Assembly (NCBI GenBank): GCA_951406725.2
Contig: OX597840.1
Span: 19,778,001-19,842,000 of the forward strand
Reading direction: 5' to 3'
DNA: 64,000 bases
Source of the DNA: Octopus vulgaris
Taxonomy: Eukaryota
Shown here piece by piece: positions 42,830-54,261 of this stretch. How positions within the stretch are numbered: position 1 is the stretch's first letter; the number at the start of each line of letters is the position of its first letter. Position numbers and translations under genes: made by a program. The notes under the pieces were generated by a model. That model ran no database searches and was not told where the DNA came from. It was given only the letters and a program-made list of their open reading frames with translations.

Positions 42830-42892
42830 CACCACCAACAAAAAATAAGAAATCACGAAACTTCATTTTCAATTTTATCATGAAACTTTATT
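42830..42892 (-). terminator. Candidate distal polyadenylation signal with downstream U/GU-rich element
   Basis: Minus strand AATAAA (42892-42887), followed ~40 nt later by ttcttattttttgttggtggtgtg. Sits close to where repeat-poor sequence gives way to repeat-rich sequence. Confidence 0.55.
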
Positions 42893-44023
42893 TCACAGAA
42901 TAGACAATAAAACACAAAACATAAATTAATTAAAGGGGGCGGGGAGCAACCCCCAACTGTATTGCAAATAATAATAATAATAATGATACAGTTGGGTTTT
43001 TAGTTTACATTGGTCAGAGTAAAAACTTTTAGCACAGTGTTTTTCTTCTCAGATTTTAACTGAAGAATTATTAAAAAAAATAATAAAACATTGAAATACT
43101 GACCAAATTGACAAATTAATTTAATTACGTTTAATTACGAAATATTGATAATAAATATCTTTTGCTTTTTTTTTTTTTAAAGTTTTTATTTCTATGATTT
43201 TTTTTGTTATAAGTTAGGAGAAAACTGGAATAATTTATTAATTAGCAAAGATTCTTTTTTTTAGTTTTTGTGGGGTTTTTTTTTTTTTTTTACACTTATT
43301 TAATATTTTAGGATAAATACATTACTGAAGTAAGGTAGCTCTTAGCCAGAACGCCTTGAGTGCGTGTTGTGGTGTGTGTATGCATGTGGTGTGTGCGTGT
43401 GCACGAGCATGCGTGTATAAAAAGTAGACAGAATGTTATTGTTTACATTATATACAACAAACGTGTGCACACAGAAGTGGGGAAAGAGAGAGAAACGGAA
43501 TATTTTTAATTAAAAAAACTTTTGTAAAAAAACTCATTTAAGTCTACAGAAAGTGTTGAACTACAAACACAGATTAAATAAAGGGGGTAGATTGGTGGGG
43601 TGACAACAAAACGGGTGGGTATCCGTTGTTGGCAGCCAAGTTGAAAAGTTACTGCCTAAACAAACAATTATATAAATACATATATATAATGTAATTGTAA
43701 TGAAATTGTGTATATGTAAGGAACATCGAAGGCAAAAGTGAACTTTGTCTGTCCTTCCTTCCTTCCTCCACGTACACATTGTCTCCCCCACCACACCTCC
43801 TTCGTAAAGAGGGGGGGTACTTGATTGTACACCCGCCCACTAATACTTAGCCAAATTACTAACGGAAAGAAAGAAAAAAATAATCACTACACAGAAATTT
43901 GTCTTCAAGCATATAAATTAAGATAGGAAAAGGGGTACAAGAAAGGCAAAAAAAAAATAGGGGTCACAGAGAAATTATGTTACAAGTTGTTCATCTTTCT
44001 TCAGGTTTTATTTTAAAGAATGA

Positions 44024-44054
44024 AATAAATATTAAATAAATAATAGAATAAATA
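44024..44054 (-). promoter_or_regulatory. AU-rich element cluster (four AUUUA, one UUAUUUAUU nonamer)
   Basis: mRNA reads UAUUUAUUCUAUUAUUUAUUUAAUAUUUAUU. Confidence 0.55.
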
Positions 44055-44344
44055 GAAAAAAGTCGGAAAAAATCCTTATTTTAATGGAGGGTTAAATAGG
44101 ATGGGAAACTGGGGTGGTGGATAAGGGGCTAGATCTTAAGGGATTAAGATTTGGGAAGGTAAGGCATTTTAAGGCATTTTAAACTTATTTCCGTCATTTT
44201 AGTTAAAACTGCCAATTATTTATTTTATAATTTGATTTGAAAATAAGAATTTTGAGATTTACTTAGAAACTGACAAAGTTTGAGAAAATCAGGTTTGGTA
44301 CAAAAAAAATTAATGGAACATTTGAAAATTTAACAGAAAATTTA

Positions 44345-44835
44345 GATTTTTGCATCTTCATATCTGGGACTGCTTTTGGGTGTTCTTTGATACAAAAATT
44401 TACCAAATATTAAGACTGATGGAACATTTTGAAATTTGGTATATTTTTGTATCCAAGCATCAAAGGCAGCCCCAAACATGGATTTAAATTGGAACATTTT
44501 AAAATTGAAGATTTTTCTATCCAAGAACGACCAAAGGCAGTGCTTAGACACGGATCTAAAAATGGAATATTTTTTAAAATTTAGCAAATTTTTGCATCTC
44601 ATATCTGTGACTGCTTTTGGATGTTCTCTGATACGAAAATTTACCGAATGGAACATTTTGAAATTTGGTATATTTTTGTATCCAAGCATCAAAGACAGAC
44701 CCAAACATGGATTTAAATTGGAACATAATTGGAACATTTTAAAATTGAAGATTTTTCTATCCAAGAACAACCAAAGGCAGTGCTTAGACACGGATCTAAA
44801 ATGGAATATTTTTTTTAAATTTGGCAGATTTTTTT
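44345..44835. repeat. Two-copy tandem duplication (~243 bp unit) made of ~70-80 bp sub-repeats, one of them inverted
   Basis: tttgcatct..atatctg.gactgcttttgg and aaggcagtgcttagacacggatctaaaa recur at ~243 bp spacing. Each unit contains a ~40 bp inverted repeat. Confidence 0.9.
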
Positions 44836-45256
44836 GTATTAAGAAGAAGCCGTCCGAAACGTGGATTAAATTTATTACAAATAAGAAGGTAGGTAATGTT
44901 TACTACTGCTTAAGACTAAGGAAGATTTAGGTTAGGTTCATTTCGGTTAAATTGGCAACATGCCATGTACATACAGTGCTGTGTATGTTAGGTCATAGGC
45001 CTGGAAAAAGATCAAAGAGATTAGAGGGGAGGGGAGAATCGGAGTAGAAAAATAAGAACACTTTACCGCCAGCCAGCAACCAAGATATGCAGGAAGGTCG
45101 GGGGAGGGGAGGGGGTCACTACCTTATCTCACCTGCTAATATAGTGAAGCTTAAACATATGCGACTGTTTAAGTACAGTGGTGGTGGTCATAAGTGGGAA
45201 CACTTCCTAGGCACTCCTTAACACATCGTTAATACAAAAATAAGGCACTGATTAAA

Positions 45257-48200
45257 TTTGGTCCCAGTATTTTTTAGCAGTGCTGAGTTCTACCATAGTT
45301 ATTGCATCGCCATTGGTTCCTTCTCAACAGGGATTTAAGGGAATGGGTTAACCAATAAATGAACCTTGGCAATAAAGGGTCAAGGGGGAAAAGGAAACTA
45401 AAATTTTCAATTTAATACTTTTTCATAAGAAATGCTACAAATAGTTCCCTTTTTCTGAAACCCTACCATTGTCCATTTCTACAGAGGACATGTATAATTT
45501 AATAGCACATATATACCACATGTATATAAAACATGTATGCCATGTAGGAAGTTTCTTAAGCTTTGGTGTAATTTTGTAAGGAACCCACTTTATTCAACCA
45601 AATGAAACGGATTCAGGCAATGCAATCCCTATATAGGTCCTAAATTATAAAAGGTGCCGGTTTTGAAGGTAATTATCATAATTGATTATTAATAAGGGAG
45701 AAAGTTTTGAGCCTTAATTTATAGAAGAACACCGGGGTGACTAATACACAGAAAAAAGGGGGGGAAGAGACTGGCCCGGATGAAAGTGTGGAAGGAAGTT
45801 AGGAATATTGAAGAAGGAACGAGTATGAAGCTGAGGAAAGTAGGAGGTTGAGACAGGGGACGATAATGTAAAGAGGATACTATAGGGGTATTATCAGGGC
45901 CTTGGTATGGTCAAGGGTGATTGGGGAGGCACAGGTATTTGCACAATATTGGCTCTAAATTCTTGTTTAAAGTTAATTTGTGTAGGAAGCATTTGATTAG
46001 AATAAAACATCTAGACACACATGTACATATGAAAATATATATATCTATACATATATATATATATACACACACACATAGCGTGTGTACAATTGTGTGTATG
46101 CAATGGTTAAGTGTTTAAAATGCAAAATAATGGGGAGAGGGTCAGAGGATTAAGTTTTGTTTAAAAAAAAAATGGATATGAAAATTTTGTAAAAATTTGA
46201 GAAAAAATGTTTTTAAATTAGTTTTGATGACGTAACAAATAAAGCTCAATTTTTCACACATCTCTTGTTTTTCTGTTTGAAAAAAAAAAAAAAAAGCAAA
46301 CTTTTTATAAGAGAAAAAAAGGGATATATATATATATACACACACACAGAAAAAAAAATATTTCAAATTGATTTGGTCCCATAGTTGCAGCAATTTTAAA
46401 ATTTTTATGTCCCGTTTTAAAAAACCAAGTTAGGACAGTTTCAACATTTAAAAATCAAAAGCATACAGAATTGTATTGGTAGAGGGAAGGGGAGAAAAGT
46501 CTTGTCATCTTGATAAGATGATCTCGGCGGGAATGAAAATGTTTTTTTTTGAAGGGGGCCCTTTTTGCACCTAAATATTTAATAAGCTATAACCAGCCCC
46601 TATCGGAGGTTAAGAAAAACATTCTCCCTTCACCTCATCCATAAACGTTTAAAATCCCTCTTTATGTTTTAAGCCAAACAGGTAACTTCAAAATCTTCCC
46701 CTCTTCCTTACTTTGGTCCCATGGAAGAAAAATTGTGGAGAAAAATCTTTGAGATAATAATACATCTTTCTTCTTTTACATTTAGAATATTTTTGGAAGG
46801 AGGGGAAGATAAAATACCATTAAAATTTTTTTTTTTATGAAAAAAAAAAAAAAAAAAAACATTTCCCTTATTTGTGTAAGCCTAGAAAATCCAAAGATGA
46901 TTAAGGGTTACTTCTCTTCCCCCCGATTCCAAATAATGAGATTATGGTTTTACAACAAAAATATTTTTAAATTAAGAAAAAGAAAAAATGGATACACCAT
47001 TGATCGCCTAACAGAACATGGGTTCCAGAATGGTCCCTTATATTTTAAGGGGGAGGGGAGGGGGCGTACATTCATTATAAATTCGGTTTTAAATTATGGG
47101 TTTGATTTTTCACAATTTGTTTCAAGAACAGAAATCAAGAAAGTGTTATCTTGGTTTGTTCTTGGACAGGTTTTCCCTTATTCCACACGAAAATTTAACC
47201 ATTTTTTAAGTTCACAGGAATCCGCACAATTAATTACTAACGAAAACAAGACAGGCAGGGTTAGGTGGATGGGTGGGTGGGAGAATGCTGCACCAAACTG
47301 TTAACATTTTTTTTCATAATCAGTAAAATGTTTTGAGTAAATTAAAAAAAATTGTTAATTGGTTTAAAGAGAAAATAAATAAAAATTGGTCCCACAGAAA
47401 GGATTTCAATCAGCCGTAAAAAGGTTTACACATACACCCTACTTGCTCCTTAACACTTGATGCATTAATTCACAAGACACAGGTGGGATGTGGGGGTGAT
47501 GCAGGGGCAGAGGTATTACTTTGTCACCTTAAAAAGCAAGGGACGTCTTGCTTCCTGTATCACCTGAAGTGGAATCCAAACAACCCAGCAAGCAAGAATT
47601 AGGTGAAAATAAAAATATTTTCTGAAATAGTCTCAAAGATTCTATGATTCTAAACAGTTGTCTGCTCCCTTAAATAAAATTTAAAATTAAATACGGTTTA
47701 ATAAATATTTTCTAATTTTCGGTGGGTTTGCATATACAAAAAGTTAACTTTTAGCTTTTCCTTGGTCCCTAATATTGTTTTGTTACCCTTCAGAACTTTC
47801 ATCACAAATTTTGTTTTGTTAATGTTTTTAAAGATTTGATTCAGTCTTAGCATAAAGCTTTTAAAATGTTAAAATTTTTCATCTTCAAAAGTACCTTAAA
47901 ATACATCACATCTATACAAAGATATGATGTATGGGGTATGTGTATGAATACACCGTGTATGTATATATATATGTGCACACACACAGACACTATGATATTG
48001 TATGACCACATAAATTTATGAATATGCCAATGTAATACATGTACCTACAGATAAAATCCTTAACCCAAGAAAGGAGCAAATAAACAGAGAAATATAGCGG
48101 CTGACACTCATTGATGCTACATCGAAGAGGCCAGGGGACAGAAGAAAGAAGACATGCACTCAACACCAGAGCTGAAGACACCTCCAAAGGGGTGGGCGCC

Positions 48201-48431
48201 ACGTCAAATCGGTAGAGGATTAGGGGCCGAAACCGGACGTGGTTCCTCCTGATGATGTCTTGAGCTAACTGGATCCTATAAAGGAGCTGTTGTGGTAGCA
48301 GACTACGAAATACGGTTGAAATTCCTAAGAGAGGCAGAGAGAGACGAAGAAGGGGCCTAAAAGAAACACATTCAGGTCACCCCAAAGGGCTTCTAGCAGC
48401 AGAAGCCCCAACTACAATGGCACTTGGTCCC
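45257..48431 (-). promoter_or_regulatory. Cluster of seven miR-133 seed-match sites (mRNA GGGACCA[A])
   Basis: Plus-strand TTGGTCCC at 45258, 46373, 46713, 47386, 47762 and 48424, and TGGTCCC at 47031. All are in the orientation that is sense for the Tis11-like mRNA. Confidence 0.7.
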
Positions 48432-50108
48432 ACAGAGAACATTTCAAGTTACTTTTGGGTACCACCTCGTATACCATATAAGTATGCATTATACACACCA
48501 AAGACATACAAAACCCATTTAATTTTTCCATTCAATGAATGATAGCAAAAAAAAGGTTCCTAATGTATGATAAGGGGTCAGGTGAGAGGGAGAGGTATTA
48601 CATGGCGGTGGGAAGTGGGGGGAAGAATTTAAGCTGCCATGGAATGGGTATTTAAGGAGGAAAGAAAAAAAGGAGTAACAGATACTCATTTAGTCAAACT
48701 TGCTATTAGGGAGTATCTATCTTATGCATGAAGAAAAGATGCCTGCCCCTTCTCAAATGCAGGGGCAGGAGATTGACAAAGGGGTCATGAAGAAATTGCT
48801 ATAAGGAACAGACAAGTTTTAATCAATCAAAAGAATTCTTATAATTTCAAGCATTGTTTTTGATTTTGAACTACAGAACAAGAAGGGGTCATTTGGGCAG
48901 TCTTTGAGAAAGACAGCACCATGATGCCAATTCAGTGCCAAGAGATTTGTAAACGACATGCTGTATTGGTTGGCATTCACACCAGAAGATCCAACACGAA
49001 CATTTCAGAGTGCTAGTCTGAGAGGATTCTGCAAGAGTTGGAAGAGTCCATAAATTACAAGAAGGTATGGCAGCTCGGAAGGCTTACTCTGATCATTCTG
49101 ATAAGAAAAGAACCCCTGAACTTTTTAGTATGATGTGGGCCATGATTGACAAAGTTCCCTCCAAGTCAGTGTGTATATATATGCACACGTGTGGGTGTGT
49201 CTATACATACACACACGCATGTATATATTACACACACATGTATGTATACATACATGCATATATACACATGTATGTATACACACTCATGCAAGCATATATG
49301 CACATACATAAATCCATGTGCTTAATGAAGAATGTTCATTTAGCTTTTTACACAATAATTATTGATAATTAGTAAAATTAATCATTAATTATTGCAGATT
49401 ATCCAGATATGACCCACCCTCACAGGATCAGAATCCCCAAATGGTAACAGGCGCAGGAGTGAATAGTCAAGAGTGAAGCAGTAGGGTTCAAAGTTTAAGG
49501 CCCATACGAGATGTGTATATATACATATATATATATGAATCCATACGAATGGGATAAGAAAGAAAAAAACTATGTTTAATATACCCATATGAGATTTTAT
49601 ATATGTTTGTGTGTGTATACGTGTATGTATGTATAAATATACACACACACACACACATATAAAATAAATTAATATATAATTTAGCTGATGAGAGGGGATA
49701 ATAGAAGATATGTTTTGATGTAATTAAAACAAATCGTGGTCAAATAGAATACGTGTAAGTGTGTGCGATTTACTAATTGAAAAATCTTAACGAAGTATGG
49801 TAATTGGCAAATAGACAAAAGAGAGCAAGACAACATGAATAGGAAGTTTTCTATTATTCCACAGAACCGCAACCCTGCCCTTCTTAAAACCTCAAGAGCA
49901 GGAGGGCAGGGTCCGATTAAACAGGTTGTTTAAATACAACTAAAAATAAATATAAAAATAAATAAAGCACCTGTTGTTTTTTTGTTTTTATTTCGTTTGT
50001 TATTTTATTTTATTCTTGGTCACATTTTTTGTTTTTTAGTTTTATATAATTATTATTATTATTATTATTAATGTATGTTTTGTTTTGTTTGTTGTTTGTT
50101 GTTTTTTC

Positions 50109-50129
50109 AAATAAATAAATAAATTAAAT
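50109..50129 (-). promoter_or_regulatory. Overlapping AUUUA (class II-like) ARE
   Basis: Plus aaataaataaataaattaaat = mRNA AUUUAAUUUAUUUAUUUAUUU. Further nonamers at 49957-49965 and 47374-47382. Confidence 0.55.
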
Positions 50130-51525
50130 CGAATATTTAATAACTTAAGAGGCAATGAAAAAGGAAAAAAAAAAATATATATATATATAATCCCTTTGTC
50201 TTGGAGGGAGGAAAGAAACAAATTAACTGACCGACCCCTACGCCGCCAAGACAAAGACTAACACACACACACCCACCAACCCACCCATACTGCCCCCTGC
50301 CCTTTTTCTCCTGGGTAGAAATTAAATGCCAACTCTTGTAAAATCAGGGGAATGGGGGGAGAGTTTTTTGTGTATAGGGAAAGAGGAAGACAGATTAACA
50401 GCAAACTATATCCTGCATGTATGTATATGTCTATACACATATGCAATATATGTATATATACATTATACACACTGGACAATCATTCCCTCACTTCAGTTAT
50501 TAAATACATATATACATATATATATATATATACATGTATATATATGTGTGTATGTTTTAAACTTGATATGTGGAAAGGGAGAAAGTTATATAGAAATTAA
50601 AATAGCATATATATTATATATATACACATGCACATTGGAAGGGGTCGTATTTTCCCCTTAGGCAGAAAAAGTCTATTGCCTTTTGTTTCAGCATAATGGA
50701 TTCTCAGGAAGTGAAAACCTTCAATGTTTTTGATATAATTTTACAATTATCGCAAGAAACGAAGTTTTTAAGTTTCTCTCCTCCTTCAATGTAATTAAGA
50801 GTTAATATAATTCAGGGTGGTTACGCTGGTACTTCTTGTAAATGGGTGGGGAGATAAAGTCTTAGAATGTGGGGTAATTTTTTTATTTTAAAAATATGGG
50901 TAAAAACTTTTTTTCATTTTGGATATCGCAGTCCGAGAGAAAGCAGTTTGTTTCTTCTTTTTTTTCAAAATGAAGAGAAAAAAAATTTTAATTTATAAAT
51001 TACAAAATGTGGGATTGTTGATATTTTAACATATGCATATGTTAAAATATATGCATTTCTTGGCTAATTTTAATTTATATATTTCACATTAAAAGGCCCA
51101 AATTTAGCAATACTGTTTTTTTTATATATATGTAGAGACTAACTTAAAATTGATGAAACCCGAGAAAGAGAGGCAGGGTCAACTTTGAGCAGAGCATACA
51201 GAGAGGTTGGCAAGTGTTGTGTGTACATGCAATATTAATGTTAACGAGAGCTTGTGTGTTAAATGATTGCTTCTACATTGTTGTCGTCATCAGCACAGCA
51301 ATTTGTTGTAAAGGTAGGATTGAAATGTTTTAAAGTTAATTAATTAGAAGATGAAGGAGTTGGAGAGCATGGCTTGTTCGTTAAAACAAGCGGCTTTGAA
51401 GAGACCAGACACCAAAAAAAGGATTCGCTTTTTTTTTTTTTTGGCTGTCTGTCTCTCTCTCACTGTCACTCTCTCTCTCTCTCTCTTCATTTCTTTTAAT
51501 GAACAAACAGGTTTAAAAGACATCC

Positions 51526-53544
51526 TTACGCCTCCAAATCGGTCCACATTGGCATTCTGGAAGTAGCAAAGGGTTTCTCGGCGGCTCCCAAACTGAAGAA
51601 AGTGTCGTAGGTCGACGAGGAGGACAGAGAAGACGAAGACGAAGAATTCGACGAGATGTGAGCTGCTCCAGAAGGGTCGTTGAGAGTTTGGTAAAACATC
51701 TTGTATGAAGACTGACCAGGTGAAGTAAAACTGCCGGTTCCGCTGGTGTAGTCCTGTCCGGTCAAGTTGAAAGCATTGAAGGGGTGGAAGCTGTTCTCGT
51801 AGGTCTCATGCTGTCGCACCGTCTCGTAGGGGAGCGGTGGTGGCGTCGTAGGTGTGCCAGGAGCATTTGGGGACAATCTGGAGGTGGCCAAAGCGAGCTC
51901 GTCCCCAACGTTGTGAGAGGAGGACATGGCGAGTCTCCCGAGAGCGGACAAATTGCTGGACAACCCCGTAGCCGTCGAAGAAGAGAGCATACCGTTAATA
52001 TTATTGATGTGGTTGTTGTTATTGTTGATGTTGTTGCCTCCCATGTTGCTGCTGTTGATGATGATGAGGCTGGATGGTCCAGCGGAGTTTGAGGTGGTCG
52101 AAGTGGTGAAAGATGGGGTCGTGGCGGCGTTCATGTTATTCAGGTGGTTGTTGTAGATGTTAATATTATTGTTGTTGTTGTTGTTGTTTGGGAAATCTTC
52201 GCCGAAGAAGAGAGGACTCTGCCGGTTGAGACTCCTCGTCGGACTCTCGCTGACGCTGGACGGAGGGGGAGAGTCACCTGTGGATCCAAGAGAAGGTGGG
52301 CTGGAGTTGTAACTGATCAGCTTAGGCCTGCTGTTGTTAGCACCGAATGCGGCGCCACCTGTTGGAGACAGTCGTGAACTATAGAACGGGGAGAATTGAG
52401 GAAGAGGTGGCGAGTGCTGGGGTGACAAGCTGGAAGGCCCTGTCAATAGTGAAACCCCATTAGTACCACTGGTACCGTTTTGGCTGTAGTGACTGCTGCT
52501 GTTGCTATGGTACTGCTGCTGTTGATGGCTGAGACCAGACTCTTTTAACAAGGAACTTTGGTGGTGGTGATGGTGAGAGTTGTGTTGCTGGTGGGGCGAG
52601 TGGTGGGAGAGGTGGAGGGGAGGTGGAGAGGTGGCGGTGGTGGCCGCGGTGCTCGTGGGACCGGCGACCCCGATTGCATTGCTGTTGACAGCATTGTGAA
52701 GACTGACGGACAGGCCGGGAGACGGGGATGACGAGGAGGAAGACGAAGGTGACCCACCACCGGACGACATGGCCCCACCGGCGGCAGCGGAAGTGTTGGA
52801 GGAGCAGCTGGAAGCGGTGGTACCTGAAGAGGTCTTGCGCTCGTTCTCGTTGTGGATAAAGTGGCACCGAGGACCGTAGGGGCAGAAGCCGCTGGAATGG
52901 TAAGTGCGGCAGGGTTCCGTCTTGTACTTTGGGTGCCTGGCTGGCGTCCTCAGCTCCGTGGTGCCATGGGCATAGCGGCACTTCTCACCATATTTGCATT
53001 GACGACTCTCATCATAGGAACGACAAAGTTCTGTCTTGTACTTGTTAGAATTTATTTGACTCAGGCTGCTGCTGCTGCCACTGCTGCTACTACTGCTACA
53101 ACTACCAACACCATTATTATTGTTGTTGTTGTTGTTGTTGTTATTGTGGTGGTTGCCGTTGTGGTGGTGGTGGCCATTGGCGATGGCTGCAGAGCGAGAG
53201 GAATCGGCAGGTTCACTCATGCTGCGATCCAATTTGCAAGGATGAGACGGAACCATTGTGCTATGGGAGGTGTTGTTGTTGCTACCTCCTGGCCCACTGG
53301 ATGAGATCAAGGAATTATGGCTGTTCAAACGCATGTAGTATTGGGCCGACGAAGACGTAGACGATGTGGTGTTGCTGTTTGACGAAGTGGATATGATGGA
53401 CACGGATGACGCTCCGACTGGAGGCGCGCCAGACGATAGGGTAATCTTCCGATTGCGAGACGCAGACGAGCCGATATCCACTGGGCCACCAACTGCTTTA
53501 CGATCGATTGTGGTCGAAGATCTGTGAGAAACCGAGTTCGGAGT
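51526..53544 (-). CDS. Tis11: Major (last) coding exon of a TIS11/ZFP36L1-like (tristetraprolin family) tandem CCCH zinc-finger ARE-binding protein. 672 codons plus stop; the N-terminal exon was not found.
   Basis: Encodes KYKTELC-x8-C-x5-C-x3-H, an 18-aa linker, then KYKTEPC-x8-C-x5-C-x3-H. Also DRKAVG (53505-53488, as in the ZFP36L1 N-terminus) and KLDRSMSEP (53235-53209). Preceded by a strong phase-0 acceptor tttttattttccAG|ACT. TAA at 51528-51526. The track ORF extension to 53829 is read-through of an intronic repeat. Confidence 0.93.
52852..53043 (-). other. Tandem CCCH zinc-finger (TZF) RNA-binding domain
   Basis: [64 protein letters not shown], with canonical TTP-family spacing. Confidence 0.97.
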
Positions 53545-53590
53545 CTGGAAAATAAAAATTAAAAAATAAATATTAAAAGACAATAACAAA
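53545..53590 (-). promoter_or_regulatory. 3' splice site (polypyrimidine tract + AG) of the Tis11-like intron
   Basis: Minus strand reads ...cttttaatatttattttttaatttttattttccAG (AG = 53546-53545), directly before in-frame TPNSVSHR. Confidence 0.85.
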
Positions 53591-53779
53591 AAAAGATGCA
53601 AAATACAACAAAAAGATGCAAAATACAACAAAAAGATGCAAAATACAACAAAAAGATGCAAAATACAACAAAAAGATGCAAAATACAACAAAAAGATGCA
53701 AAATACAACAAAAAGATGCAAAATACAACAAAAAGATGCAAAATACAACAAAAAGATGCAAAATACAACAAAAAGATGC
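53591..53779. repeat. Perfect 20-bp minisatellite (AAAAGATGCAAAATACAACA) x ~9.5
   Basis: Directly visible, identical copies, 45 bp from the splice acceptor. Confidence 0.97.
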
Positions 53780-54261
53780 GATATATCCAGGCTAAACGAA
53801 AACTTTTCATTTGTATCCAAACCAGGCATTTGTTATCCAATATCTTATATTGTTTCGAGAACCATTCGAAAACATTTTAAACATACACACACGTACACTA
53901 TGTATAAACGTATACACACGCACACATACATGCTTATGTATAGAAGTATACACACATGCACGCACACGTACTATATAAAATTTACCTGGTAAGATATCCC
54001 AAAGTGTCACAGAGAAATCAAACCTAAAACCCAAAACGGATGGACAACCCAGTTATCGATTGATAAGGGCACATCAGGGAACTTAAAAAGCTGCCGTCAA
54101 AACCTATACAACACAACAACTGCAACCATCCTTAGGTTTTAACTTGTATATTCGAAGACCATAAGGGTTTAGCAATTTAATGATTCCAGTAGGCCAAACT
54201 GTGTAGAACCAGCGCTGAAGAGACACTGTATATAAATAATCTGTAGGAGGAAACTAAATCG

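Follow-up and report, generated by a model that had tools for sequence, protein, structure and literature searches.

The window analysed here is a stretch of 64,000 nucleotides (nt) from the 2.8 Gb genome of Octopus vulgaris (GCA_951406725.2, contig OX597840.1, positions 19,778,001 to 19,842,000 of the forward strand). It holds part of a Tis11/ZFP36-family gene and, in the putative 3' untranslated region (UTR) of that gene, a cluster of seven predicted sites for the microRNA (miRNA) miR-133. The last coding exon lies on the minus strand (51526..53544; 672 codons and a stop codon) and carries two Pfam zf-CCCH domains. It is 98% identical to O. bimaculoides ZFP36L2 in the zinc-finger region and 91% over the whole exon, and both its splice acceptor and the start of the N-terminal match fall at 53544; the first coding exon was not found within the window. 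Adjoining the acceptor on its upstream side are about nine tandem copies of a pyrimidine-rich 24-nt unit (53570-53780). The tandem fingers (52852..53043, minus strand) follow the pattern CX8CX5CX3H-X18-CX8CX5CX3H, that is, the 18-residue spacer of the TTP/Tis11 family, and are led by KYKTEL and KYKTEP, the second departing from the (R/K)YKTEL type. Genome-wide the finger region has one match, a count that is a lower bound. The gene behind which the sites lie is the octopus Tis11/ZFP36 gene and the sole one of its kind found in the genome.

By analogy with its family, octopus Tis11 would bind AU-rich elements and promote deadenylation. It resembles the TTP/Tis11 family in its tandem CCCH fingers, its 18-residue spacer and the AU-rich nonamers in its own UTR, and differs from it in cephalopod-type fingers on a long branch and in a C-terminal RMPMW where bivalve and other relatives have RLPIF. 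The RLPIF-type C-terminal motif of TTP/Tis11 proteins is the one that binds CNOT1. The octopus C-terminus, RMPMWTDL, does align with RLPIFNRL of a scallop relative, but it is divergent. Four close relatives (P0002-P0005; 82-90% in the finger region) have no RLPIF-like motif at their C-terminus, the octopus sequence at 51529-51560 reading RMP(M/I)W, and the branch that bears the fingers of these four and of octopus Tis11 is long and fully supported. Recruitment of the deadenylase may thus be altered in the cephalopod-type protein. Six further Tis11-like loci (L013-L016, L020 and L029) end in a hydrophobic tail, RLxxLxxLAAxLRLL, with no RLPIF motif.

The putative long 3' UTR, about 8.65 kb on the minus strand (42870..51525), is delimited by strand skew and by the distribution of poly(A) signals. 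On the mRNA strand the cumulative excess of C over G climbs unbroken from about 54 kb, through the coding exon, to a peak at 42935. A candidate distal poly(A) signal, an AATAAA at 42887..42892 (minus strand), lies 43 nt from this peak and, among the 10 signals listed, is followed by the strongest GU/U-rich element. AATAAA occurs 10 times in sense and 24 times in antisense over the whole of 42870-51525 (p 0.024), and 0 times against 12 over 45600-49985, which suggests one transcript reaching about 42.9 kb. Of 24 sequencing runs listed, 20 contain all or some of the stretch and none is recorded as RNA; these runs count neither way. Three AATAAA and a U-rich downstream stretch form a candidate proximal poly(A) site (49987..50014, minus strand) that precedes all seven miR-133 sites. 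The proximal UTR also contains two overlapping TTATTTATT nonamers (50110..50122, minus strand), which we take to be of the AU-rich type bound by TTP-family proteins and which form a candidate autoregulatory element; more such nonamers stand at 49957-49965 and 44035-44043. A recent local duplication of about 230-240 nt in the distal UTR (44340-44833; 90-97% identical) has no miR-133 sites.

The sites lie on the sense strand 3.1-6.3 kb past the Tis11 stop codon and comprise six copies of GGGACCAA and one of GGGACCAT. Numbered from the stop codon and all on the minus strand, they are site 1 (48424..48431), site 2 (47762..47769), site 3 (47386..47393), site 4 (47031..47037), site 5 (46713..46720), site 6 (46373..46380) and site 7 (45258..45265); all are 8mers except site 4, a 7mer-m8 in which GGGACCA is followed by T. 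The opposite strand of 42870-51525 has no seed match, as against seven in sense. The count of six 8-mers and one GGGACCA in the initial annotation is borne out. Six of the seven GGGACCAA matches in the window belong to the cluster, and the remaining one (22962) has a repeat-like context. In 100 shuffles of the window the 8-mer averaged 1.32 occurrences and never reached 7; for the 7-mer the excess was not significant (10 of 100 shuffles reached 9), so that the signal is the local cluster. In the 8.7-kb stretch the 8-mer is expected 0.028, 0.086 or 0.10 times under Markov models of order 0, 1 and 2 (p 1.4e-9 for order 2), and 0.043 times judged from its 2 occurrences per 399,800 strand-bases in 20 arbitrary 10-kb regions. 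An earlier rough figure of well below 0.1 was therefore about right to slightly low. Under all three models GGGACCAA ranks first among the non-simple 7- and 8-mers of the stretch. Corrected for all 65,536 8-mers, its p is about 1e-4 by our own arithmetic; the best repeat-collapsed 8-mer in any of the 20 arbitrary regions reached only 1.7e-6. The cluster of predicted miR-133 sites is real and is a strong excess over chance.

The genome encodes a miRNA that fits the motif, the miR-133 named in the initial annotation. A mir-133 hairpin at C13:72680809-72680885 scores 65.1 bits against an Rfam cut-off of 55.5, with mir-1 lying 22.4 kb upstream on the same strand (cluster C13:72680809-72703272; L001, L041). 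Its 3p arm, (U)UUGGUCCCCUUCAACCAGCUGU, is complementary to the enriched motif, and the strand bias and the boundaries of the motif fit seed sites. The motif ends exactly where miR-133 nt 1-8 end: all seven GGGACC hexamers extend to GGGACCA and six of them as far as the final A, opposite nt 9 stands T five times and A twice but never the pairing G, and the one-mismatch neighbours of the 8-mer occur only 3 times summed over 24 words. If the mature RNA starts UUGGUCCC, as we take invertebrate miR-133-3p to do, six sites have a match to nt 2-8 with an A opposite nt 1 and one is a 7mer-m8; for an alternative isoform starting UUU, six would still be 7mers or better and three would be 8mers. Because the G opposite nt 8 is invariant (7/7) and none stands opposite nt 9, the UU start is favoured, and we infer that mature octopus miR-133 starts UUGGUCCC. 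Co-targeting by miR-133-5p was rejected, there being no 7mer-m8 or 8mer for it. A second mir-133 paralogue, sought at three other genomic places (L062, L064 and L065), was also rejected, with no mir-133 among 37 weak Rfam hits and none over the cut-off.

At site 3 the pairing extends beyond the seed (whole feature 47386..47417), which the initial annotation did not mention, nor did it mention the AU-rich nonamer next to the site. An 11-nt loop (47394-47404) is followed by a 13-nt block (47405-47417) that pairs with miR-133 nt 10-22 through 11 Watson-Crick pairs and one G:U, with a single mismatch at nt 15. This pairing was first noticed by eye and its tests are after the fact: no other 13-mer in the 128 kb of both window strands reaches 11 such matches, the analytic p over 21 registers and 7 sites is about 1e-3, and the energy of pairing to nt 11-22 (-13.4 kcal/mol, ViennaRNA) was reached at 1 of 2809 background positions. 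It lends support to miR-133 as the ligand that is independent of the seed. A TTATTTATT nonamer (47374..47382, minus strand) starts 3 nt behind the site, a nearness with a rough chance of about 6% by our own estimate, given four such places in the UTR. Upstream of the motif, sites 1 and 3 agree at 13 of 16 positions, TTGAAAT among them (empirical p 0.004; 21 pairs tested). Pairing to miR-133 accounts for only five of the shared bases: TTGAA (pairing nt 10-14) stands in the same register at site 1 (48443-48447), beyond an 11-nt loop, and an old local duplication is possible. The lone mismatch at site 3 is an A (47410) opposite C15 of the miRNA; adenosine-to-inosine editing would give 13 contiguous pairs, and the base 5' of it is a G, a neighbour that ADAR disfavours. 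The block and the next three bases (ATC) mirror the 5p arm of mir-133 (L001:1501-1577), including bases that the hairpin leaves unpaired. Two of the three ATC bases recur at site 1 and at one site of a distant Tis11 locus (L005), and the mirroring may be chance. At 45579-45605, about 320 nt from site 7, TGGTTGAA (pairing miR-133 nt 10-17) overlaps an AATAAA and is followed by GGGTTCC; it is possibly a decayed eighth site, with about 0.1 such places expected by chance in the UTR (our own estimate).

Among 32 Tis11 loci from metagenomes, 24 were used after five weak hits (L030-L034) and three loci whose contig holds no stop codon (L009, L017, L018) had been left out. The first 3 kb were counted; most of the contigs are short and taxonomically unplaced save L004, which is 81% identical to Lamellibrachia. 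GGACCAA occurs five times in sense and never in antisense (1.13 expected; p 0.006), and GGACCA nine times against three (p 0.017). In the annelid locus L004 a single 8mer stands 45 nt ahead of an AATAAA, and in L005 470 nt of the likely UTR contain five GGACC, of which three read GGACCA. Of 11 sites in these loci, four have TTGA, which pairs nt 11-14, upstream of them (p 0.02; rank 4 of 256), as do 2 of the 7 octopus sites (p 0.07). These counts are a hint, not a proof, of an older link between miR-133 and Tis11. No further Tis11 locus was confirmed among 16 and 37 candidates from genome and viral collections.

Taken together, these data point to additive repression of a long Tis11 isoform by miR-133, which we consider probable. 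Argonaute loaded with miR-133 would bind the dispersed sites one by one and independently, likely lowering the mRNA and protein of the long isoform in cells that make miR-133. Such cells are probably muscle, a view that rests on vertebrate data (PMC8488162) and on the clustering of mir-1 with mir-133, not on octopus data. A putative short isoform, with its 3' end near 49.97 kb, would carry none of the seven sites. Lower Tis11 would then stabilise AU-rich mRNAs that it would otherwise deadenylate. The initial annotation had allowed for cooperative repression. Cooperativity is a property of miRNA sites a few tens of nt apart, and neighbouring sites here are separated by 662, 376, 356, 317, 340 and 1115 nt. 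They occupy only 3.2 of the 8.7 kb (p 0.012) and are spaced more evenly than random (minimum gap 317 nt; p 0.01). Because they are at least 317 nt apart and evenly spaced, short-range cooperativity is not supported, and the sites would act additively. Flanking A+U is at least 0.68 at five of the seven sites.

Several observations weigh against this repression. The extent of the transcript is read from skew and signal counts, and skew reflects transcription rather than the mature mRNA; the limits of the interval free of AATAAA were set post hoc, and 3 of 80 background stretches are likewise free. Four AATAAA lie upstream of every site, and the signals at 49987-50014 could end the mRNA before them, although they may just as well mark an isoform switch. 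Sites 1, 3 and 4 have low predicted accessibility (at most 0.04), and 1.7% of random upstream stretches attain the whole-duplex energy of site 3, or about 11% over seven sites. Neither the expression of octopus miR-133 nor its mature 5' end was met in any source, and miR-1, its cluster partner, has no 7mer-m8 or 8mer in the Tis11 stretch and one 7mer-A1. In the distant loci the signal is weak: GGACCA ranks only 154th of 4096 hexamers, GGGACCA stands at 3 against 2 and GGGACC at 4 against 3, and of the three GGGACCA in L005 two are located past the probable poly(A) signals of that locus. A positive correlation between TTP and miR-133b is reported for human lung cancer tissue, which concerns a different paralogue and lineage (PMC8138596).

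That the sites arose by chance, or are what is left of a tandem repeat or transposon now decayed, is scarcely credible. The gaps of 317-376 nt do look periodic, the first gap becomes 433 nt once an inserted repeat is removed, and the likeness of sites 1 and 3 would fit a common origin; elsewhere in the genome a 359-bp satellite carries GGGACCAG, and the diverged head of a short interspersed nuclear element (SINE) gives a miR-133-like site. Yet the inter-site segments are alike in none of 10 pairs (p at least 0.21), by which a cryptic 350-nt tandem repeat was rejected, and none of the seven sites aligns across its motif with a repeat, either in the window or in the 20 regions. Over 45150-48600 only a 230-bp insert and a weak microsatellite stretch have other genomic copies. 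The insert, an interspersed repeat between sites 1 and 2 (48098..48326), has at least 39 other copies in the genome (90-94% identical) and no seed match. The satellite (L042:2745-4763; 5.6 copies, 98% matches, GGGACCAG in each) was rejected as a source: nhmmer found no match to its unit in the UTR, and anchored flank comparisons gave p below 0.01 in 2 of 14 cases, but at different sites and sides. The flanks had been called unrelated except at 47386 and 48424. That holds, with no likeness beyond p 0.04 in 20 of 21 pairs and homology confined to the upstream likeness of sites 1 and 3, although the stretch these two share is longer than the 13 nt noted. An old duplication that kept only the sites would itself imply selection. 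It is very unlikely that GGGACCA is instead an N6-methyladenosine (m6A) signal or is bound by another agent, whether an RNA-binding protein or a DNA-binding factor. GGACC fits what we take to be the DRACH consensus of m6A, and TGACC is sense-biased too (15 against 4), but the remaining DRACH words are not enriched (GGACT 2 against 1, GGACA 3 against 5, GAACT 4 against 5), and the m6A reading was rejected on that ground; a 7:0 strand bias is unlike a DNA element, and the 3' pairing of site 3 points to miR-133 itself. Somewhat less remote, but still unlikely, is that the sites are genuine and belong to a separate or read-through non-coding transcript acting as a sponge, the Tis11 mRNA ending near 50.0 kb. 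The signals at 49987-50014, which precede every site, and the confinement and even spacing of the sites would suit this, but the same-strand skew is unbroken from the coding exon to 42935, AU-rich nonamers stand on either side of the cluster, and no Rfam family, that is, no known structured RNA, was matched within 41-57 kb.

A further possibility, compatible with additive repression and in our view doubtful, is a two-way switch in which the Tis11 mRNA is repressed and also destroys miR-133, with site 3 as a trigger of target-directed miRNA degradation (TDMD) and the other six sites ordinary. Tis11 mRNA and miR-133 would then be mutually destructive, six sites silencing the long isoform and site 3 degrading the miRNA; the same doubtful reading would include gating by Tis11 protein on the nonamer 3 nt from site 3 and a choice of poly(A) site that drops all seven. 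Validated triggers have 3' energies of -9.6 to -17.1 kcal/mol (RNAstructure), loops of 3-11 nt and, in 12 of 13, at least six contiguous pairs (PMC10899785). Site 3 resembles triggers such as Cyrano for miR-7 and HSUR1 for miR-27 (PMC10899785) in its 8mer seed, its central loop and a 3' energy within the validated range, with the caveat that ViennaRNA is here set against published RNAstructure values. It has seven contiguous pairs (nt 16-22) if one G:U is counted. It differs from them in a longest pure Watson-Crick run of five, a mismatch at nt 15 inside the supplementary region and a loop at the upper limit. A genome-wide pattern of its shape has five matches, namely the opposite strand of the mir-133 gene itself, site 3 and three other places. 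Against this, the reversed control pattern gives two matches compared with four outside the gene, about 1.1 being expected by composition; only one of the seven sites has the shape; and the three other places pair better. In each of these three a perfect match to miR-133 nt 10-20 is followed by a loop of 1-13 nt and then by an 8mer seed (composition predicts 0.08 such places, and the reversed control gives 0): L065:1501-1521 (C16:31002497, plus strand), L064:1501-1532 (C14:76806393, plus strand) and L062 (C11:95887402-95887432, minus strand). With 3'-part energies of -17 to -19 kcal/mol they are candidate TDMD-type sites. L062 is the diverged SINE head, and another 8mer follows it at a distance of 409 nt; L064 adjoins a repeat; L065 comes after a stretch resembling a splice acceptor and lies in about 40 nt of unique sequence that give way to a repeat. 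No host gene was recognised by eye among the listed open frames in 80 kb, where no family scan was made.

The initial annotation knew of no description of a circuit between miR-133 and Tis11, and none was found: in the titles and abstract openings of the papers listed in the literature searched, a scope outside which most subscription papers fall, there is no link between miR-133 and Tis11/ZFP36, and the same literature yielded no paper on TDMD in octopus. A list of miRNAs acting on ZFP36 genes names miR-29a, miR-182, miR-200c and miR-375, with miR-133 absent from the part concerned (PMC9319505). Closest in material is the study of miRNA response elements in octopus 3' UTRs (Zolotarov et al., 2022; PMC9699675), which concerns the same genus and uses the same 8mer definition (nt 2-8 plus A) that six of the seven sites fit. 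It differs in treating sites genome-wide, and its main text has miR-133, Tis11 and ZFP36 0 times. The parts of its supplement that were searched hold no miR-133/Tis11 entry, and its list of conserved sites (data file S3) may hold the sites.

In mouse, TTP destabilises MyoD mRNA in resting muscle stem cells, and miR-133 is muscle-enriched in vertebrates (PMC8488162). Removal of Tis11 by a muscle miRNA would by comparison be a plausible switch for differentiation or regeneration in an animal that regenerates its arms. For a muscle-associated miRNA that is deeply conserved, the cluster names a concrete predicted target of unusual strength in a cephalopod. Since that target is the animal's single decay factor for AU-rich elements, a single miRNA would adjust the stability of an entire class of mRNAs. 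With seven sites that can be separated, one of which has extended 3' pairing next to an element of the Tis11 type, the cluster would make a clean system for additive repression, for isoform escape and possibly for miRNA degradation, outside flies, worms and vertebrates. If the two-way switch were true, it and the three better-paired places would be the first set of miRNA-degradation triggers in a mollusc, and the link between miR-133 and Tis11 may be old in invertebrates.

Multiple sites for a single miRNA are familiar from lin-4 and lin-14, let-7 and HMGA2, and miR-200 and ZEB1-2. The octopus cluster is like these in having five to eight seed sites for one miRNA across the long 3' UTR of a regulator, and it differs from them in the miRNA and the target, in that the target is an mRNA-decay factor, and in being known from sequence alone. 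RNA-binding proteins are also among the targets of miR-133 itself, which acts on nPTB. Another is HuR/ELAVL1, on which miR-133a/b acts (PMC9319505), and there, as predicted here, post-transcriptional control is reshaped through a repressed RNA-binding protein. HuR stabilises AU-rich mRNAs and Tis11 destabilises them, so the predicted sign of the effect is opposite in the octopus.

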